From Phycisphaeraceae bacterium (lineage in GTDB: Bacteria > Planctomycetota > Phycisphaerae > Phycisphaerales > Phycisphaeraceae), in NCBI GenBank assembly GCA_963674705.1, contig OY771506.1, positions 2,944,001 to 3,008,000 on the forward strand: 64,000 bases of DNA, read 5' to 3'. Of the stretch, positions 5,801 to 59,030 are shown piece after piece. A program made the position numbers and the translations under genes. The notes beneath the pieces were generated by a model. The model had not been told where the DNA came from. It worked only from the letters and a program-made list of their open reading frames with translations, and made no database searches. How positions within the stretch are numbered: position 1 is the first letter of the stretch; the number at the start of each line of letters is the position of its first letter.

Positions 5801-6028
5801 GGAAAGCAGAAAAACAGGAAAGCAGGAAAGCAGAAAATGAAGACAATAGGGGGATATATAAGCCTTTAAAGATCAGTGACTAGCCGGATTTTACGATTGG
5901 ACATGGCACATCGAAGATTGAACATGAAAATACCCGGCCCTTCGCTGCGCTCAGAACCGGCGTTGGGGGAAAGCCATTAGCCTTTAGCGATTAGCCATTA
6001 GCAATACGATCCCCAGACCCTGGACCCA
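5801..6028. repeat. Composite intergenic repeat: 9-mer tract + 7-mer tract + 35-bp core + 7-mer tracts
   Basis: (GGAAAGCAG)-like units 5801-5836; (TTGAACA)-like 5897-5926; core 5932-5966; (AGCCATT)-like 5972-6003. Confidence 0.85.
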
Positions 6029-11831: not shown

Positions 11832-12022
11832 TCGGGTATCGTACTTCGGGTATCGGGTGTCGGTTTTATTACGCCGGTCCTGAGCGAAGCGAAGGGCCGG
11901 GTGGTTTTAATCACTAATCTGTAATTTCTAATCTCGAATGTTCGATCTTCAATGTTCCATCTGCCGCTTGCTGTCCGTGCTAAAAGCTAACGGCTAAAGG
12001 CTAATGGCTAAAGGCTAACGGC
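11832..12022. repeat. Composite intergenic repeat: four 7-mer tracts around the 35-bp core
   Basis: (TCGGGTA)n 11832-11863; core 11871-11902; (TAATCNN)n 11908-11939; (AATGTTC)n 11937-11961; (GCTAANG)x6 11979-12022. Confidence 0.87.
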
Positions 12023-12024
12023 TT

Positions 12025-12614: not shown

Positions 12615-12715
12615 AACAGGGATGAACACAGATAAACACGGATTTGTAAAGGAGGTTAGGTTTAAACACACTTTTCATGCGTTTCTCTCTGTGTTAATCC
12701 GTATTCATCCCTGTT
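12615..12715. mobile_element. MITE-like element bounded by 28-bp inverted repeats of ~10-bp units
   Basis: 12615-12642 matches the reverse complement of 12688-12715 at 24/28 positions. Confidence 0.65.
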
Positions 12716-12728
12716 CCTGTATTTCTAA

Positions 12729-13862
12729 CTAACTGATATACGACTTAATCTTGTCCCAGAAGCCGCTTGTGTGTGGCATGACTTCACGGTCTTCGGTCTC
12801 GGCGTATTCACGCAGCAATTCTTCCTGCTTGTCTGTCAGCTTGGTCGGGACTTCGATCATGAGAATGATCGCCATGTCACCGGGTCGACCGTTCCGCAGG
12901 TTTGGCAATCCCTTTCCAGGTGCGCGGATGATGTCGCCGTGCTGCGAACCGGGCTTGATGGTGATCTCGTGTGTGCCATCGATGATCGGTACTTCAAGCG
13001 TCGCGCCGAGTGCGGCCTGCGTGAAGCTGATCGGCAGCTTGAGGATCAGGTGGTCATCCTCACGGGTGAACAGCTCGTGTTCCTGGACGCGGACGACGAC
13101 GTGCAGATCGCCGTGCGGTCCGCCGAGATGACCGGGTTCGCCCTCGCCGGGAACGCGGACGGCTTGGCCGTCATGGATGCCTTTGGGGATCTTGACGCTC
13201 AACACACGGCGTTTGGGTTGGCGACCATCACCGCCACAGGTTGTGCATTTTTCTTTAACGACTTTGCCGCTGCCGCCACAGTTGGGGCAGGTGGTGACCA
13301 TGCGGAACATCCCACCGAGGCCGCTCTGTGCGACCTGGCCCGCGCCGCCGCAGCTTACGCAGGTAATCGGTTGAGCGCCGGGGGCTGCGCCGCTGCCTTT
13401 GCAGCTTTCGCACAGGTCCTGGCGGGTGAACTCGATTTCTCGTTCGACACCGGACGCCACTTCTTCGAGCGTGATTTCGGTCTGTGTCTGCAGGTCGTAG
13501 CCACGTTGCGGGCCTTGACGTCCGCGACGACGTCGTGAACCACCGAACGGCCCGCCACCACCGCCGAAGATCTCCTCGAACATCGAGAAGATGTCGCCGG
13601 CATCCATGTGGTTGAAGTCGTGTCCCGCCTGGCCCTTGAGTCCGGCGTGGCCGAACTGGTCATAGCGGTTGCGTTTGTCGGCGTTGGACAAGACCTCGTA
13701 CGCCTCGGCCGCTTCCTTGAACTTGACTTCAGCTTCTGCATCACCCGGGTTGCGGTCCGGGTGGTACTTCATCGCGAGCTTGCGGTAAGCGCGCTTGACA
13801 TCATCCTCGCCCGCTTGGCGCTCGATCCCGAGTACCTCGTAGTAGTCGCGTTGTGTGGGCAT
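12729..13862 (-). CDS. dnaJ: Molecular chaperone DnaJ
   Basis: J-domain HPD, G/F-rich region, four CxxCxGxG repeats. Confidence 0.98.
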
Positions 13863-13869
13863 TGTTTAT

Positions 13870-14301
13870 ACCACAGAGGCACAGAGGCACAGAGAAGGCA
13901 GGAAGAAACTAAAGAACAAAGCGCTTGATGCCTTCCTTTAAAACAGGGACATTGAAGTTGATGAGGAGTCCTACGGGGTATTTGCCAAGTTTCATGTAGG
14001 TCAGCAACTGAGCTTCGTGAACCGGTAATATCTTTTCGATGGTCTTCAATTCGATGACCAGACGATCTTCTACCAGCACATCAATCCGTAGCCCCTCATC
14101 TAACTTCAATCCCTTATAACTTACAGGTAAATGCACTTGCCGTGCATACTTCAGGCCGGCTTGATCCAGTTCATAACAAAGGCAAGACTCATAGATCGAT
14201 TCCAGCAGGCCGGGGCCGAGTTGGCGATGCACTTCAATGGCCAGGCCGATGACCTACTGGGTTAATGGATCTCTCTGTGTCTCTGTACCTCTGTGGTTCA
14301 A
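13870..14301. mobile_element. GxxExxY cassette bounded by 26-bp terminal inverted repeats of 9-bp units
   Basis: ACCACAGAGGCACAGAGGCACAGAGA (13870-13895) matches the reverse complement of 14272-14297 at 24/26 positions; inserted between groEL and dnaJ. Confidence 0.7.
13909..14301 (-). pseudogene. GxxExxY protein (PD-(D/E)XK-like) interrupted by an in-frame TAG at codon 16
   Basis: From the TTG at 14301: [37 protein letters not shown]...RIDVLVE...IELK...QLLTYMK...GLLINF; TAG at 14254-14256. Confidence 0.85.
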
Positions 14302-14310
14302 ACCTTTTCC

Positions 14311-15924
14311 TTACGCCACCGCGCCGGGGACCGGCTCATCGTCGTCCTTGAGTTCGGTGATGAGGACGTTGGTTGTCAGCATCAGGCCGGCGACGCTGGC
14401 GCCGTTGAGCAGGGCGGTGCGTGGGACGAGTGCCGGGTCGATGATGCCGGCCTTGACCATGTCCACGTATTCACCGGTTGCGGCGTTGTAGCCCTTGTTG
14501 CCCTTGGCGTTCTTGACTTCTTCGACGACGACGTGGCCGTCAATACCAGCATTCGCCGCGATCTGCTGAAGCGGGGCTTCGCAGGCAATCGCTACAGCAT
14601 CGAAACCGAGCTTCTCATCGCCCTTGGCCTTGCTCTTTGCTTTTTCGATTGCTTCGATCGCACGGATCAGGGCGACACCGCCGCCGGGGACGTAGCCTTC
14701 CTGGGCCGCGGCTTTGGTGGCGTGCAGCGCATCGTCGACACGATCCTTACGTTCCTTCATGGCTGTCTCGGTCGCAGCACCGACGTTGATGATCGCGACG
14801 CCGCCGGTCAGTTTGGCAAGACGTTCCTGCAGCTTCTCCCGGTCATAGTCGCTGGTGGTTTTCTCGATTTGCATCTTGATCTGTTCGATGCGGGCGTTGA
14901 TGTCCTTCTTCTTGCCCGCGCCTTCGATGATCGTGGTGCTGTCCTTGTCGATGACGATCTTTTTTGCGGTGCCGAGGGCGTCGAGTTCGAGTGTTTCGAG
15001 CTGTATGCCCAGGTCTTCACTAATGAAAGTCGCGCCGGTGAGGGCGGCGATGTCACCGAGCATGGCTTTACGACGATCGCCGAAGCCCGGAGCCTTGACG
15101 GCAGCGATCTTCAGCACGCCACGCAGACGGTTGACGACCAGCGCGGCCAGCGCTTCGTTCTCAACATCTTCCGCGATAATCAGAAGCGGCTTCTGCGCCA
15201 TCGCGACCTTGTTCAGCAGCGGCAGCAGGTCCGGCAGGCTGCTGATCTTTTTCTCGTGCACGAGGATCAGGCAGTCTTCGAGGATGCACTCGGTTGTTGC
15301 CGGGTCGGTCATGAAGTAGGGGGAGAGGTAACCCTTGTCGAACTGCATGCCTTCGACGTAGTCGAGGGTGGTTTCAGCAGCCTTGCCTTCTTCGACTTCC
15401 ACGACGCCGTCCGCGCCGACCTTGTTGATCGCTTCGGCGATCAGTTCGCCGATTTCAACATCATGGTTGGCGGAAACAGTGGCGACCTTTTGCAGGTCGT
15501 CCTTGCCTTTGCACTTCTGGGCGGACGCCTTGATTGCTTCGCCGGCCGCATCGGCAGCGGCGAGGATGCCGCGCTGGATGGCGATCGGGTTAGCGCCGGC
15601 GGTCACGTGACGCAGGCCTTCGTTGAAGATGGCTTCGGCCAGGATGGTCGCGGTGGTCGTGCCGTCGCCGGCTTTGTCGGAGGTCTTCTTGGCGACCTCG
15701 ACGACCATCTTCGCGCCCATGTTCTGGAAGGGTGCTTCGATTTCGATTTCCTTGGCGACCGAGACGCCGTCCTTGGTGACGGCCGGGCCGCCGTAGGACT
15801 TCTGCAGCACGACGTTGCGGCCGGTGGGGCCGAGTGTGACTTTCACCGCCGCCGCGAGCTGCTCAAGCCCTTTTTTTAGTTCGACCGCCGCTTCGGCGCC
15901 GAAGATCATTTGTTTATGTGCCAT
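14311..15924 (-). CDS. groL: Chaperonin GroEL (second copy, no GGM tail)
   Basis: [35 protein letters not shown]. Confidence 0.97.
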
Positions 15925-26800: not shown

Positions 26801-26899
26801 CTGACCGCCAGCGTCGACGAGATCGACAATGCCCAGGCCATCGGCATCGTCCTGATCCCCGAAGGCTTCGGTGGCGGGATCAACCCCCTGATGCAGTAA
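23801..26899 (+). CDS. lptD: LptD/OstA-like outer-membrane LPS-assembly protein (start uncertain)
   Basis: Beta-jellyroll-like middle, TTSEFAEPHF, PFFYWPY, YVSDETFLEEF, RHIVEP, beta-barrel-like C-terminal half. Confidence 0.7.
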   Translation: MDQRTDRVLGDYAPRVRKTHRYLQALCACICVLLLGGMFMQSTVHAADGDVSTAISNPIADPIVHGEAVFFARKVSAWKQGDEQWLLLEGDAGFSIGVYGFRADNAVVRVVTDPQPGRTIRHLSVYLDNAKHLRGTGPVSAEAKRLLVTASTTGKLQVQNDLFVELDQQPRSELITDALARMQRYEQALARVTIEPPTEPLYDPQMFGPRYAAKYTPSEDRPVERKPVEVHPVDTVATGTAVANEASNLPQPVATRAPEPDKGTVLPTQGTVLLNADRVVYDPGEDESSIMLIGNVRVFYDDFKNDRQVSLRSERVVVFVDKKQDGAAIAPASVQADTVRGIYLEDNVIVADRDFTVRAPRVYYDVRENKAILLDAVIYSYDALRQLPLYMRAETIRQTSATSFNAQNVQLTTSEFAEPHFAIGAARLTLDKEDVESANDTYKFTASDTTLRVRDTPFFYWPYLEGKPTEVPIKRVKTGYDSDTGFELETVWDVFALAGREAPDGVRLLGKADWRGDHGPAVGADLEYGLENMFGHAETYLLLNDNGTDTVGGRRDIEQDSETRGYYLWQHRHYLPNGSELSLESAYVSDETFLEEFFRDEAYQSKPYETSLYWKKQSEDQALTFLTRYDLTDFTPQLAPLQTPGYTVDKAPEVSYFRTGTSLWDDKLTWFSENRAGFVRIRPGEDTPFDRGFSNRASMTLFGIPNTTAFDDAVFATGVPDEWVFRVDSRQEVNMPIEAGDFTIVPYAVGRVTAYDEDFSAYAGEADQYRLWGSLGTRVSTQLSRTFDTQNGMLDVDGIRHIVEPSVDVFVSGSSLDSEDIPVYDYDVESLQEGEGLRLGLTNTFQTHRGSGAQRRAVDWIVWRTDLVFNNSDADVDDEIARFFDYRPEYSTGGDHLYTELLWMVTDTFGITGELTHSMEHDRIVQWRVGGSLQHTPRFTSFVRYDEIDLLDSRLLSFGFTYVLTVKYQMGFRQRLDFERDESQSVDVWLERRVPKWRIRLTASVDEIDNAQAIGIVLIPEGFGGGINPLMQ

Positions 26900-26900
26900 A

Positions 26901-27048
26901 AAAGCAGGAAAAATTGAAAAGCAGGAAAGCTGGAAAGCAGAAAAGCAGCAGATTAAGAACTTTTGGTTCTATGGCCGGCCCAATGGGCAGCCAAACCCGG
27001 GATCATCCATGTTTTCTGCTTTTCTGCTTTCCTGTTTTTCTGCTTTCC
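26901..27048. repeat. Inverted pair of 9-mer (GAAAGCAGR) tracts
   Basis: AAAGCAGGAAAGCTGGAAAGCAGAAAAGCAG (to 26948) versus TTTTCTGCTTTTCTGCTTTCCTGTTTTTCTGCTTTCC (27012-27048). Confidence 0.8.
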
Positions 27049-27123
27049 TCTCCCCCTGTATACTGATCGGCTTGCAATTGTTCCCCGGATTCCCGTATCG
27101 AATCCAACACGGAGACCCTCACG

Positions 27124-33420: not shown

Positions 33421-33550
33421 TCGGGTGTGTGGTGTGCAGCTTTTTAATTGCTAATCGTTAATCGCTAATGTTTCCATCCCAACACCGATCCTGAGCGAAG
33501 CGAAGGTCCGGGCTGTATCGATGTGAAATGTTCAATGTGCGATGTGCAAT
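33421..33550. repeat. Composite intergenic repeat: 7-mer tracts flanking the 35-bp core
   Basis: (TAATCGC)n 33445-33469; core 33479-33512; (RATGTNC)n 33520-33550. Confidence 0.85.
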
Positions 33551-43983: not shown

Positions 43984-45264
43984 TTAATAATGCCGGATCA
44001 CCGCGCCCGCGGTATGCCCGGCAAAACCCGCGGCAAACACAGCGTGTGTGCTGGTAGGCTTGAGGCTTGAGGCTTGAGGCTTGAGGGGCAGGGGGGTGTC
44101 GATCGGGTTTTCAAGCCAGGGCATTGGCGGCCGTTGCCGTGTTTTGGCGCATAAGCATGCAAGCACCAGTGCCGACAATCCCGCTGCGCCAAGGCCATGG
44201 CCGATCGCACCTTTGCAGGCGTACACATCCGGCATCGGTGCGCCGGTTTGTTTGATCGCTTCGGCGTAAACATTCAACTCCGCTGGATCGTGATCCAATG
44301 TCCCCGGCGCGTGCGGGTGGATCATGTCCACTTCTCTATCATTGAGCAATTGTCCTGTGATCCAGCGCAGTGCGGGCATATCGCTGCTGGGGCGGATCAG
44401 GTCGTACGCTTCGGCGGCGGTCGCTGTATCCAATAGTTCGCATTCACCGGGCATCGGTTCGTTTTCGATCGGCACGCGCTTGAGCACAACCGCAGCACCA
44501 CATTCACTTAACACGAAACCTTGCCGCGTTTCATCCATAGGTAATTCGCCGTAACCATCAGGCGTCTGCGGCGCAAGCACACCGAGGCGTCGGTAGCTGT
44601 GGATGAATAACGGCAGCAGGGAGGCTTCGCTGGTGGCGACGATGATGTAGTCGTTACTTCGGGTATCGGGTATCGGGTGTCGGGTATCGGAAGAACTGTA
44701 AGGCCGAGTAAGTAATTCAGTAAAGCCATAGTGCAGCGCGATCAGGCTGGAAGCGCAGGCGGCGACGTGGTGGTGCACCCGATTCAATCCCAAACGTTTT
44801 GTTAGATGATGGTTCAGATAGCCATGCGGGCCCAGTGCGACGGCGAGGTGTGCATCGATCGGCGGCGGGGGGCTGAGCGTCGGATGCCTCGCCCCCGGGT
44901 GCTGCGATTCATACGCGGCGCTCATCGCATGCACCGCCCCCTTGCTCGTTCCCACATAAGCATCCAGCCCGGCCGACTCGATCCCCGCCATCATCAACGC
45001 CTCACGCGCTGCCCGTTCCGCCAGATCGATGGCCGGGTCCGTCGCGGTGTGTTGAGCGTTGATCACCGCACCGGTCGCCCTCAGCAGATCGGTCACCGCG
45101 ATATCGCTGGGCAATTTTCGGGCTCGTTCGGCAAGTGTTCGGCCCTTCAATAGTGACGTAAATGTTTGCCAGGCCGAGCCTCCCAGGGGTGTAACGAGGC
45201 CAAAACCCGCGATCAGGACACGGAAACGCCGTTTTTTCGGATTAGGTTTTTTGTCGCTCTTCAT
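43984..45264 (-). CDS. Divergent beta-ketoacyl synthase (FabF-like)
   Basis: IAGFGLVTPLG, AACASS (catalytic Cys), GFVLSE, HAPGT, KGAIGH, GFAG. Confidence 0.83.
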   Translation of the reverse strand: MKSDKKPNPKKRRFRVLIAGFGLVTPLGGSAWQTFTSLLKGRTLAERARKLPSDIAVTDLLRATGAVINAQHTATDPAIDLAERAAREALMMAGIESAGLDAYVGTSKGAVHAMSAAYESQHPGARHPTLSPPPPIDAHLAVALGPHGYLNHHLTKRLGLNRVHHHVAACASSLIALHYGFTELLTRPYSSSDTRHPIPDTRSNDYIIVATSEASLLPLFIHSYRRLGVLAPQTPDGYGELPMDETRQGFVLSECGAAVVLKRVPIENEPMPGECELLDTATAAEAYDLIRPSSDMPALRWITGQLLNDREVDMIHPHAPGTLDHDPAELNVYAEAIKQTGAPMPDVYACKGAIGHGLGAAGLSALVLACLCAKTRQRPPMPWLENPIDTPLPLKPQASSLKPTSTHAVFAAGFAGHTAGAVIRHY

Positions 45265-48500: not shown

Positions 48501-49269
48501 CAAGGGCGAGCGCGTCGCCAAGCAGTTCCGCGTCCTCATGCGTCAGACCTTCCGGGCAACCCGCGGCATTCATGTCGACGATGAGCTGATGCGCGACGTC
48601 ATCATCCGCGCGTTCGACTGCTTCCTGTGGGGCGGTATCGAATACGCACGCACGTACTGCAACAAACTCGTCGAGGTTTTCCAGAAGGATGATCCCGAGA
48701 AGGGCTTCAAAGTCACGCGGGCCGTCGTCTGGAACCTCGCCAAGGTCATGCTCATCAAGGACGAGGTCTACGTCGCTTCGCTCTTAACGAGCCCCGAAAA
48801 ATACCGCCGCGATCGCAAACGCTACAACGTCATCCCCGAGCGTGGCGACAAGATCACCTACCGCCACCACAACCGCCCCGAGTTCGATATCTTCGGCAGG
48901 CGCGTCCGCTTCGAGTGGAAGAGCACCGACTGGCAGCTGCGCATCATGTCCAGTTGCGCCTTCCTGCGAAAGATCCTGCCCGGCTGGCACGAACGCGAAC
49001 GCAACTTCCGCGACTGGTATATGCAGCTCGTCGATACGATCGAATTCCAGGGCGACAACGACTATGCACGCTGGGCCGCGATCCTATCGACCCCGCAAAA
49101 CGTCACCGGCTACCGCGAAGTCCGCTACCCCAAACAGGACGCCGCCCGCAAACTCTCCGAACGCCTGCTCGCCATGGACCCGGAAGAATTCAAGGCCGCT
49201 GCCCCCGTCGTGCCGGACCTGGAGCCGGTGATCGTCAAGCTTCCGGTCGTGCAGCACAGCTCGATTTGA
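45550..49269 (+). CDS. Fused indolepyruvate/2-oxoacid:ferredoxin oxidoreductase family protein
   Basis: GYPGSP, RTPTFCPGCPH, GDGTFHHSG...DNKTTAMTG, Fe-S Cys motifs, GVGGMG, C-terminal IKDEVYVA (DUF6537-like). Confidence 0.9.
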   Translation: MRPIDPRFTQKAGPAVFSGNELLVKGALETEGGVHLLTGYPGSPIAPFFDTLQALGPLLHEHGIVAKQSSNEALSVAMVNGAQMVGCRAITAFKSVGLHVASDALALGVLAGTRGDSGGLIVMGDDPWSDSTQVPADSRFLAEHVRLPVIEPSTPQQVKDWINLGFKLGHAGGIYIGYMLTVANADGGGTVECYPNHFPKVNEHQKAALSYEKDIEPMLEQSVLLPPRTWQREIALPTQFEKLKTEARKLGINRIQDKPQKGLVAPLGFVAAGTAASYLDHALEEIGLTGRFPILKLGMTYPVDQVIVTEFAQQCQQIVIVEERRSFVERQIVEILNPMRQSGELKTEIFGKKFPRELPGIPESRGLNPSVLIQRLIPLIKEHATLPIELTNGHLTEHLELIQGTGDYQIDIPLRTPTFCPGCPHRDSSNVLLEIRRDLLDANYMLEHHKRKPVDMIAHGDTGCYTMLMFEPNKPLMHNYSGMGLGGGTGAGVDPFVENKQIVFMGDGTFHHSGQVAISQSIYNGQDITYIILDNKTTAMTGHQGHSGVEFDLTGNPMNALDIERIVIGLVPKKIKKDVRIVRINPADRDRYRKLMEQTILADGVKIVIADKECGITYNRRVKSGERAQLKQHGYLPKKSHMNVATEVCEFCLECTNQTGCPGLKMVGSDYGPKVQTDMSWCVNDGACERIHACPSFEEVTITRKQPKRMGDEYVELGDLPEPERPIHADQPTWRVHLGGVGGMGIGVATAILVKAGHEMGYHVRYLDKKGLAIRNGGVFSQLIYSRPQANGEPMPITPQIPYGTADLLVGIDMLEAARSIDPRLPYRVASPKRTAAVVNTAKTPTILSLMGRDDFDINDVQNAIKKYTDEEKFFGFNVGDLCERILDTKLYANIMMLGIAFQKGYLPLTREAIEHAIIEVTRGEKERNLRAFTIGRKIAVRPDLFVVEAQHEYETARQALRRKTNTLEAWYGSEWVGRIIDRNKGERVAKQFRVLMRQTFRATRGIHVDDELMRDVIIRAFDCFLWGGIEYARTYCNKLVEVFQKDDPEKGFKVTRAVVWNLAKVMLIKDEVYVASLLTSPEKYRRDRKRYNVIPERGDKITYRHHNRPEFDIFGRRVRFEWKSTDWQLRIMSSCAFLRKILPGWHERERNFRDWYMQLVDTIEFQGDNDYARWAAILSTPQNVTGYREVRYPKQDAARKLSERLLAMDPEEFKAAAPVVPDLEPVIVKLPVVQHSSI

Positions 49270-49349
49270 TGTTCAATGTTCGATGTGCAATGTTCAATCT
49301 GATGTCGATGCGCACGCCTTTTTTACACTGAACATCGAACATTGAACAT
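49269..49349. repeat. Inverted pair of 7-mer (ATGTTCR) tracts between convergent genes
   Basis: 49269-49289 matches the reverse complement of 49329-49349 at 20/21 positions. Confidence 0.85.
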
Positions 49350-58498: not shown

Positions 58499-59030
58499 TT
58501 GGGTAGGGTGTGGGGATTGTATTTATGATTTAGGATTGATGATTTAGGATTTGTGCAAATGACGTTCCTGATTTTCTGATTTTCAGTTTTCTAAATTTCC
58601 CGCTTTTCCCCACCCAACGCCGGTCCTGAGCGTAGCGAAGGGGCGGGTATCTTCATGTTTAATGTTCGATGTTGAATGTTCAATCTGAAAACTGCACACA
58701 CAGACTGTTCAGTTTCAGTTTTCACGTTCAAGTGTGATGCAATTCTACCCCCTCTCCCCGCGGGAGAGGGCCGGGGTGAGGGCCTGGTTCCCTGTGTGAT
58801 CTGTGTTGTATTGTTTACACAATCAACCCGGCCCTCATCCTTGCCTTCTCCCAAGAGCAGAAGGGATGAACGTAATCAGAATCTGTAATGTTTGGGGAAT
58901 CAGTCGATGTTTCGTCGATACAACCCGGCACTTCGCTGCGCTCAGAACCGGCGTTGGAAAATATTAGCGATTAACGATTAGAAATTAGCGATTATCATCG
59001 CTACACCCCACACCCTATCCAATCACATCC
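58491..59030. repeat. Nested inverted-repeat composite (three concentric IR pairs plus tandem tracts)
   Basis: Outer 25-bp IR 58491-58515/59006-59030 (23/25); cores 58614-58648/58923-58957; inner CCCTCTCCC-type pair 58748-58782/58832-58865. Confidence 0.85.

Follow-up and report, generated by a model that had tools for sequence, protein, structure and literature searches.

The window (the whole 64,000-nt stretch analysed, from the Phycisphaeraceae genome G000) carries on its minus strand, in this order, groEL, groES, groEL, a small cassette, dnaJ, grpE and a zinc-ribbon gene. The cassette lies between the second groEL paralogue and dnaJ, as proposed in the initial annotation, and is formed by a gene of the GxxExxY family enclosed by two inverted arms (Table 1). 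The 26-bp inverted repeats reported at 24/26 identity are found exactly so for 13870-13895 against 14272-14297, and they extend to arms of 32 nt that are 88% complementary. Their repeat period is 8 according to TRF (unit CACAGAGR, about 3 copies per arm), which corrects the 9-bp unit first given. The gene starts with a TTG at 14301-14299, inside the upstream arm, so that this arm encodes the residues NHRGTETQR. The downstream arm has a core ending 7 nt ahead of the dnaJ ATG, a distance that shrinks to 1 nt for the extended arm; both of these features had been correctly noted. Judged from the sequence, the groEL stop codon, the purine run and the TTG may couple translation of the cassette gene to that of groEL. 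A general rule by which elements would separate the ribosome-binding site of dnaJ from its ATG was considered and rejected: a purine run is still present after the arm in G042, G051 and the G000 element at 2217401, and elements stay closer to stop codons than to start codons. The neighbouring hairpin between dnaJ and grpE is common to G000 and G004 and absent from G007 and G009.

Table 1. Features of the groEL-dnaJ region and other tandem tracts of the window
Feature	Position	Strand	Remark
groEL (second paralogue), upstream host gene	14311..15924	minus	
groEL stop codon, then purine run ahead of cassette TTG	14303..14313	minus	
Upstream arm (class A8) with three 8-bp units (CACAGAGR) in tandem, holds TTG start	14272..14303	minus	
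GxxExxY pseudogene (TIGR04256 / PF13366), 130 codons	13909..14301	minus	
Premature TAG, codon 16	14254..14256	minus	CAG in intact G009 copy
Downstream arm, inverted copy of upstream arm (28/32 complementary)	13864..13895	minus	
dnaJ, downstream host gene	12729..13862	minus	
Gene-less hairpin, sister 10-mer class (B10), between dnaJ and grpE	12615..12715	.	
7-mer and AAAAGCAG-type tandem tracts, in part arranged as inverted pairs	5801-6002, 11908-12023, 26893-27049, 33445-33550, 44056-44086, 44659-44690, 49269-49349, 58514-58994		

The cassette protein matches TIGR04256 (148.5 bits, cut-off 35, E 9e-44) and PF13366 (143.7 bits, cut-off 22); PDDEXK_3/GxxExxY is its sole match in Pfam and NCBIfam, in agreement with the family first assigned to it. 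The gene has a GC content of 47%, against 61% in the neighbouring genes. Its candidate catalytic residues (E, D, E-x-K and Q-x-x-x-Y) are intact, and its reading frame is interrupted by the in-frame TAG (read 14256-14254) that stands in place of the CAG of G009. The source contigs X1 and X3, which represent two samples of one study, one of them probably the source, cover this position with no other letters, and the near-identical X4 strain exhibits 3 differences across 13930-14295. Read-through of the codon as pyrrolysine was rejected, as no pyrrolysyl-tRNA synthetase (PylS) scores over the cut-off; TAG is the terminator of 504 of the 3,077 confident genes of our own gene calls. Some joints in run X4 bypass the cassette; they were also set aside, having sides of 23-25 letters and, as their probable source, gene-less A8 pairs of other organisms. 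The gene-plus-arms cassette is thus real, but the window copy is a decayed example of it: because the TAG at codon 16 breaks the frame, this copy is a recent pseudogene and not the autonomous member of a mobile family that it had been taken for. In another genome (G034:C49, locus L281), a further GxxExxY gene is likewise interrupted by a TAG, and its arms are intact.

The fold was analyzed on an intact homologue. The alignment-based AlphaFold model reaches a pLDDT of 93, as compared to 32 for single-sequence prediction. Its best structural matches are PD-(D/E)XK proteins with middling Z-scores: 3ijm (Z 8.4, rmsd 3.1, 97 aligned residues), Cas4 SSO0001 (Z 7.9, rmsd 4.3, 100 aligned residues), Hjc and lambda exonuclease. 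Foldseek returned no match at E <= 0.001 for this model, and no sequence match to the GxxExxY protein was found in the PDB. The E, D, E-x-K and Q residues (E28, D68, E78, K80) are invariant across 51 homologues. The modelled restriction-endonuclease-like fold, together with the acidic and E-x-K motifs, places the family in the PD-(D/E)XK superfamily as a putative nuclease. It shares fold and catalytic-type motifs with Cas4, Hjc and lambda exonuclease, but differs from them as a stand-alone protein of ~125 amino acids that is tied to repeat arms and has no solved relative by sequence. A PD-(D/E)XK domain cuts and is not known to join strands.

Flanking arms are a general property of the family. 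The 116 loci given correspond to 110 distinct GxxExxY genes, which were scored for flanking inverted repeats with a threshold of 14: 85 of the 110 possess inverted arms at or above this score, against 2 of 715 shifted control windows. In the related genomes, a set that overlaps the former, arms are found at 69 of 76 genes. Sixty of these 76 fall into the six arm classes defined in G000 and named here A8, B10, C9, D9, E89 and F10. On a protein tree built without the arm-encoded residues, arm class changes 11 times among the 60 classed genes, when shuffling yields a mean of 37 and a minimum of 31; host genus changes 31 times on the same tree, close to its shuffled mean of 32.4. Within the genus of the window, 6 class changes are counted for 16.8 upon shuffling. 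On these sequences, arm class follows the protein tree and not the host, hence arms and gene travel as a unit. Both the enrichment of inverted tandem arms around GxxExxY genes and the protein/repeat co-variation anticipated by the initial annotation are therefore borne out. Linkage alone is nonetheless sufficient to explain this co-inheritance, and recognition of the arms by the protein is an inference. The family is present in 38 of 61 genomes, with up to 8 matches per genome at different sites, and record titles place its carriers in Planctomycetota, Pseudomonadota, Bacteroidota and others. Plasmids contribute 8 of 72,556 records and phages 0 of 50,697. PDDEXK_3/PF13366 is listed with the function “Unknown” and with multiple transfers in the entry given by PMC3424549. 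A description of GxxExxY genes with repeat arms was not found in the literature searched, which covered few subscription journals and no supplements, and this nuclease-repeat family is apparently undescribed. To note, at three loci (L103, L123 and L269) the best inverted repeat around the gene has the opposite polarity, the pyrimidine arm coming first; these repeats are possibly flanking whole palindromes.

Among the 61 genomes searched, 58 possess dnaJ and 56 a linked groEL-dnaJ junction. A GxxExxY gene with A8 arms occupies this junction in 5 of the 56: G000, G009 and G003 of the genus, and G042 and G051 of another family. The cassette is hence not vertically conserved in all relatives, a pattern that would have spoken against mobility. 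G004, which at 92.6% identity over 351 kb is the closest relative, harbors a gene-less 10-mer hairpin instead. In G005, G007 and G010 of the genus, as well as in G015, a 9-mer hairpin stands beside remnants of A8 arms; in G022, A8 arms enclose unrelated DNA; in G046, 7-mer arms surround a frame that resembles the four-helix-bundle genes by eye. Many other relatives have only a short CCCAGGG-type hairpin. The alignment of these junctions, from which an empty site or a target duplication had been expected, yielded neither a precise empty site nor a duplication. In the arm-less relatives (L006, L010, L012, L056, L073 and others), the junction mostly carries a short CCCAGGG/CCCACGG inverted hairpin, in many cases with a T run behind it; this hairpin is missing where the cassette sits, yet it is enclosed by the A8 arms of G022 (L068). 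A 2.3-kb insert with coding DNA lies at the junction of G033 (L082). In G015, contig C12 (L005) displays a dnaJ that is 84% identical and a junction like those of the window's genus, the second dnaJ of G015 being at 66%; mis-binning or transfer of this contig is possible.

The three junction copies of the genus form one clade in a 76-row tree (support 100/97), but this grouping is lost in a tree of 37 rows that includes Flavobacterium. They differ by a pN of 0.16-0.20, with synonymous sites near saturation. The saturation suggested that the gene had reached the genus members independently, but this is not upheld at fourfold sites, where the distance between junction copies (d 1.4-1.55 over 35-37 sites) compares with 0.5-2.7 for host genes. 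On the simplest reading of these sequences, the gene has long resided here under purifying selection and has been replaced in 5 of the 8 genus members seen. The cassette has probably stood at the junction since the ancestor of the genus, which again speaks against an autonomous member. The tree test does not separate one from two insertions at the junction in the two families (p-AU 0.089). Between G000 and G004, the first 70 codons of dnaJ display a pS of 0.51, against 0.15 for groEL. The groEL-groES spacers of the two genomes are identical while the start of dnaJ has diverged, as in a mosaic operon.

Gene-bearing cassettes are a small minority of the elements in G000. This genome contains 1,325 tandem tracts of at least 20 nt. 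For 314 of them an inverted counterpart lies no more than 1.5 kb away, whereas displaced controls give 25-36; after merging, these tracts make up 215 pairs. GxxExxY matches number 3 in total. Gene-less pairs of classes C9, D9, E89 and F10 are present, and genes are found for A8 (broken) and B10 only, leaving four arm classes without a cognate gene. Class A8 comprises 22 arms, i.e., 7 pairs and 8 unpaired arms, with the gene in the window copy only. The proposal that these elements insert between genes holds genome-wide: the 86 GxxExxY-type elements that lie between genes are located at a median of 13 nt from a stop codon (own simple gene calls), and 6 of the 86 occupy divergent junctions, whereas in the background 519 of 2,418 junctions are divergent. 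Their loops are AT-rich, ~35 nt long and almost all unique. With only 1 near-identical pair among 105 loops, copying is rarely caught; a ~185-bp gene-less nested element found at G000:C1:4569689 and 4643968 is near-identical including its loop, between unrelated flanks. This element displays a further inner arm class (CTCGGAT-type), of which a gene-bearing form exists in G006 (L285). The loops were also considered as captured pieces of the genome, an origin that found no support (1 of 47).

The arms themselves are conserved. At 13 junctions conserved between G000 and G004 they differ at 3.1% of sites, as compared to ~13% at synonymous sites. In 5 of the 6 classes, an arm resembles its partner in the same element no more closely than it resembles arms from other elements; B10, with its two subtypes, is the exception. 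The arms, which also display no G-U bias, behave as independent matches to a class consensus, as expected of DNA binding sites. Reading the flanks of 57 elements by eye revealed no target duplication, a mark that old sites may have lost, and no clean filled/empty pair was seen among the junctions compared.

Arms of different classes are nested in a fixed order. When the two sides of an element are counted separately, 79 of 79 outer-to-inner adjacencies in G000 and 17 of 17 in 1.6 Mb of G004 fit a single order, with E89, D9 and A8 outermost, then F10 and B10, and C9 innermost; none is reversed. Exact-pattern searches give the same order in 5 further genomes of the genus and in one genome of another family. 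Among 11 genus genomes, A8 lies outside C9 in 5 and B10 outside C9 in 2, the reverse in 0; among 251 genomes of the class, A8 lies outside B10 in 2 and the reverse in 0. Nesting with a second class concerns 0 of 60 gene-bearing cassettes against 21 of 54 gene-less pairs of G000, as measured with profiles trained on G000, for which 9 of the 60 cassettes fall below threshold. The layers that invade existing elements are thus gene-less. At G000 1758792, a C9 hairpin stands within B10 arms that, at the same site in G004, enclose an intact GxxExxY gene. At another orthologous site, G000, G001 and G003 retain the outer A8 arm around different interiors. Successive waves of spread could have produced the fixed order without any targeting. 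A composite common to loci L288 and L289 of G003 was discarded, being part of a longer duplication. Another locus of G003 (L295) exhibits a hybrid interior within A8 arms, with a C9 left arm and a B10 right arm.

Junctions that bear arms are also swapped more often between relatives: 9 of 26, against 57 of 502 arm-less ones. The excess comes from junctions of 150-300 nt (6 of 11 against 10 of 169), the other length bins being small or without excess. Co-conversion of the homing type was examined over 831 junctions and rejected. The rise in divergence beside 47 swapped arm junctions does not exceed that beside 71 diverged arm-less ones, and consequently there is no specific homing signature.

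A second system of the same general build coexists in this genome. Six matches to TIGR02436 four-helix-bundle genes were found; the arms around 5 of these are built of 7- or 8-mers and belong to other classes. The 7-mer and AAAAGCAG-type tract classes of the window enclose such genes elsewhere in the genome, and they mostly nest among themselves. The suggestion that the gene-less tracts of the window are relatives of the cassette is accordingly right only for the 10-mer hairpin at 12615-12715, which is of a GxxExxY-type class, and wrong for 26918-27046 and the 7-mer tracts, which belong to four-helix-bundle classes. At 2916600 and 2292107, the comparison of G000 with G004 sets the 7-mer/four-helix-bundle system against the GxxExxY system. 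The four-helix-bundle genes have no nuclease motif, and arms plus a gene therefore need not mean a nuclease mechanism.

Three known systems resemble the cassette. REPINs are extragenic inverted doublets of about 100-200 bp with unique spacers, whose groups are tied to cognate enzyme genes, as outlined in PMC3337134 and bioRxiv 10.1101/2021.07.10.451892; the account of SBW25 in PMC3337134 reports no hybrid REPINs. The elements analyzed here share with the REPIN-RAYT partnership the extragenic inverted doublets with unique, variable spacers, the many gene-less copies in groups tied to cognate genes, a small cognate enzyme gene with the same repeats in its flanks, and a gene copy that has long been resident. 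They differ from it in several respects: the partner is a PD-(D/E)XK protein and not an HUH/Y1 tyrosine transposase; the arms are purine-rich tandem units (8-10-mers) and not short palindromes; an arm encodes the N-terminus of the GxxExxY protein; the genes are multi-copy, with a tree that ignores the host; and the classes nest in order. The 23S intervening sequence (IVS) of Coxiella, as summarized in PMC4990558, has 428-444 nt, a 28-bp stem, tandem heptamers and a four-helix-bundle ORF, and is cleaved by RNase III. With this IVS and the TIGR02436 cassettes, the window cassette has in common a size of ~440 nt, inverted tandem-unit arms forming a ~30-bp stem and one small ORF, and the sister 7-mer system, IVS/TIGR02436-like, uses the same junctions in this genome. 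Conversely, the cassette lies in an mRNA junction and not in rRNA, its cargo has a nuclease fold, and no RNA-level signature was found. Insertion sequences and MITEs likewise end in inverted repeats and exist with or without a gene, but here no match to a transposase family, target duplication or precise empty site was seen and, in contrast to MITEs, the loops are not copies of a master element.

We put forward that the cassette family is a selfish partnership of the REPIN-RAYT kind, run by a predicted PD-(D/E)XK nuclease, and give this reading an even chance. In its favor are the enrichment of arms, the inheritance of each arm class with its protein subfamily, the fold, the ordered nesting of gene-less pairs, the hairpin that takes the place of a gene between B10 arms, the duplicated element, the location next to stop codons and the low divergence of the arms. 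Against it weigh the lack of a known strand-joining activity, the middling structural scores, the four arm classes devoid of a cognate gene in G000, the rarity of near-identical loops, the missing filled/empty pair and homing signature, and the parallel four-helix-bundle system. The nuclease would bind its cognate arms as sequence-specific DNA sites and cut; host repair or recombination would then copy gene-less arm pairs into junctions, the preferred target of a new pair being the interior of the arms of another class. Whole junction alleles would likely move between strains through homologous recombination in the flanking conserved genes. The window copy would have occupied the groEL-dnaJ junction for a long time and lost its frame only recently, the interior having been replaced in several relatives. 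A bolder version, which we hold only tentatively and find rather doubtful, is that GxxExxY proteins serve a so far undescribed class of miniature selfish DNA as its enzymes: each subfamily reads its own arms and sends gene-less pairs into rival arms in a fixed hierarchy, evicting the gene, the whole being transposase-free and having as sister the four-helix-bundle/7-mer system, ORF-bearing rRNA IVSs included.

The nuclease-run partnership has to be weighed against four other explanations. The cassette could be an autonomous minimal insertion element that moves by its terminal repeats, with the gene-less pairs as deletion derivatives. The several matches per genome at different sites, a protein tree that ignores host genus, the multiple transfers given for PF13366 (PMC3424549) and the presence of the gene at the same junction in two families all point that way. 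We nevertheless find it unlikely: the window copy is broken, the flanks read by eye hold no target duplication, the tree contains no near-identical gene copies within one genome, the inner layers are gene-less, and phage and plasmid records are nearly devoid of the family. Neither do the loops look like pieces of the gene, an origin from gene remnants being unsupported with 2 of 47 above the shuffled 95th percentile. An RNA element similar to an IVS is a somewhat weaker candidate. Its arms would pair in the transcript and be cut by RNase III, so that the element would persist in operons as a processing or stabilizing stem, the protein being a passenger or acting on RNA. The transcript strand does fold with its arms paired (-182 kcal/mol, z -6.7), the elements favor transcribed junctions, and the Coxiella 23S IVS is of the same build (PMC4990558). 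Yet selection on an RNA stem was rejected: arm mismatches of 74 cassettes display no sense-strand G-U excess (67 versus 84, p 0.19), a compensatory change is seen in 1 of 25 changed pairs, and arms within an element are no more alike than between elements in 5 of the 6 classes. The spread and the nesting order would also be left unexplained.

The arms could also be moved in trans by a RAYT/IS200-type Y1 transposase or a reverse transcriptase, GxxExxY and four-helix-bundle genes being interchangeable cargo. It had been stated that no transposase or integrase in the window explains the tracts; the genome holds 14 Y1_Tnp matches and 1 reverse transcriptase outside the window, and the absence of a transposase within it therefore does not decide the question. 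Two unrelated cargo families at the same junctions and the unrelated DNA within the A8 arms of G022 agree with such an enzyme. It is improbable all the same, given that GxxExxY-type arms lie within 500 nt of 0 of the 14 Y1 genes and that cargo is not interchangeable between classes, arm class tracking the GxxExxY tree and the four-helix-bundle genes having 7/8-mer classes of their own. An integron cassette finds no counterpart either, with 0 of 7 matches to the integron integrase TIGR02249 over the cut-off in the genome. Least probable to us is a domesticated, non-mobile host feature, in which the arms would be binding or structural sites maintained at gene ends and turnover would come from ordinary recombination or slippage. 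The low arm divergence, junction swaps resembling ordinary allele exchange, and a long-resident gene under purifying selection are what it predicts; the patchy distribution of the family, the element duplicated between unrelated flanks, the nesting order, together with the inner layers that differ between genomes at an orthologous site, and the more frequent swapping of arm junctions are not.

If the nuclease-run partnership is correct, an orphan nuclease family of many phyla gains a concrete candidate substrate, and the six arm classes matched to protein subfamilies provide a built-in specificity panel, in which the nesting direction predicts protein-arm pairs. It would also explain intergenic hairpins that number well over a hundred in each genome, which would remodel core-operon junctions between close relatives, and would tie these hairpins to the old question of the origin of ORF-bearing 23S intervening sequences.

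Two observations concern other repeats and RNA motifs of the region. No Rfam family reaches threshold in the window between 11300 and 18500. A palindromic repeat of the CCCTCTCCC...GGGAGAGG type occurs inside the loops of several arm pairs, at G000:C1:622190, 784412 and 2416443 and at 58762-58784 of the window.
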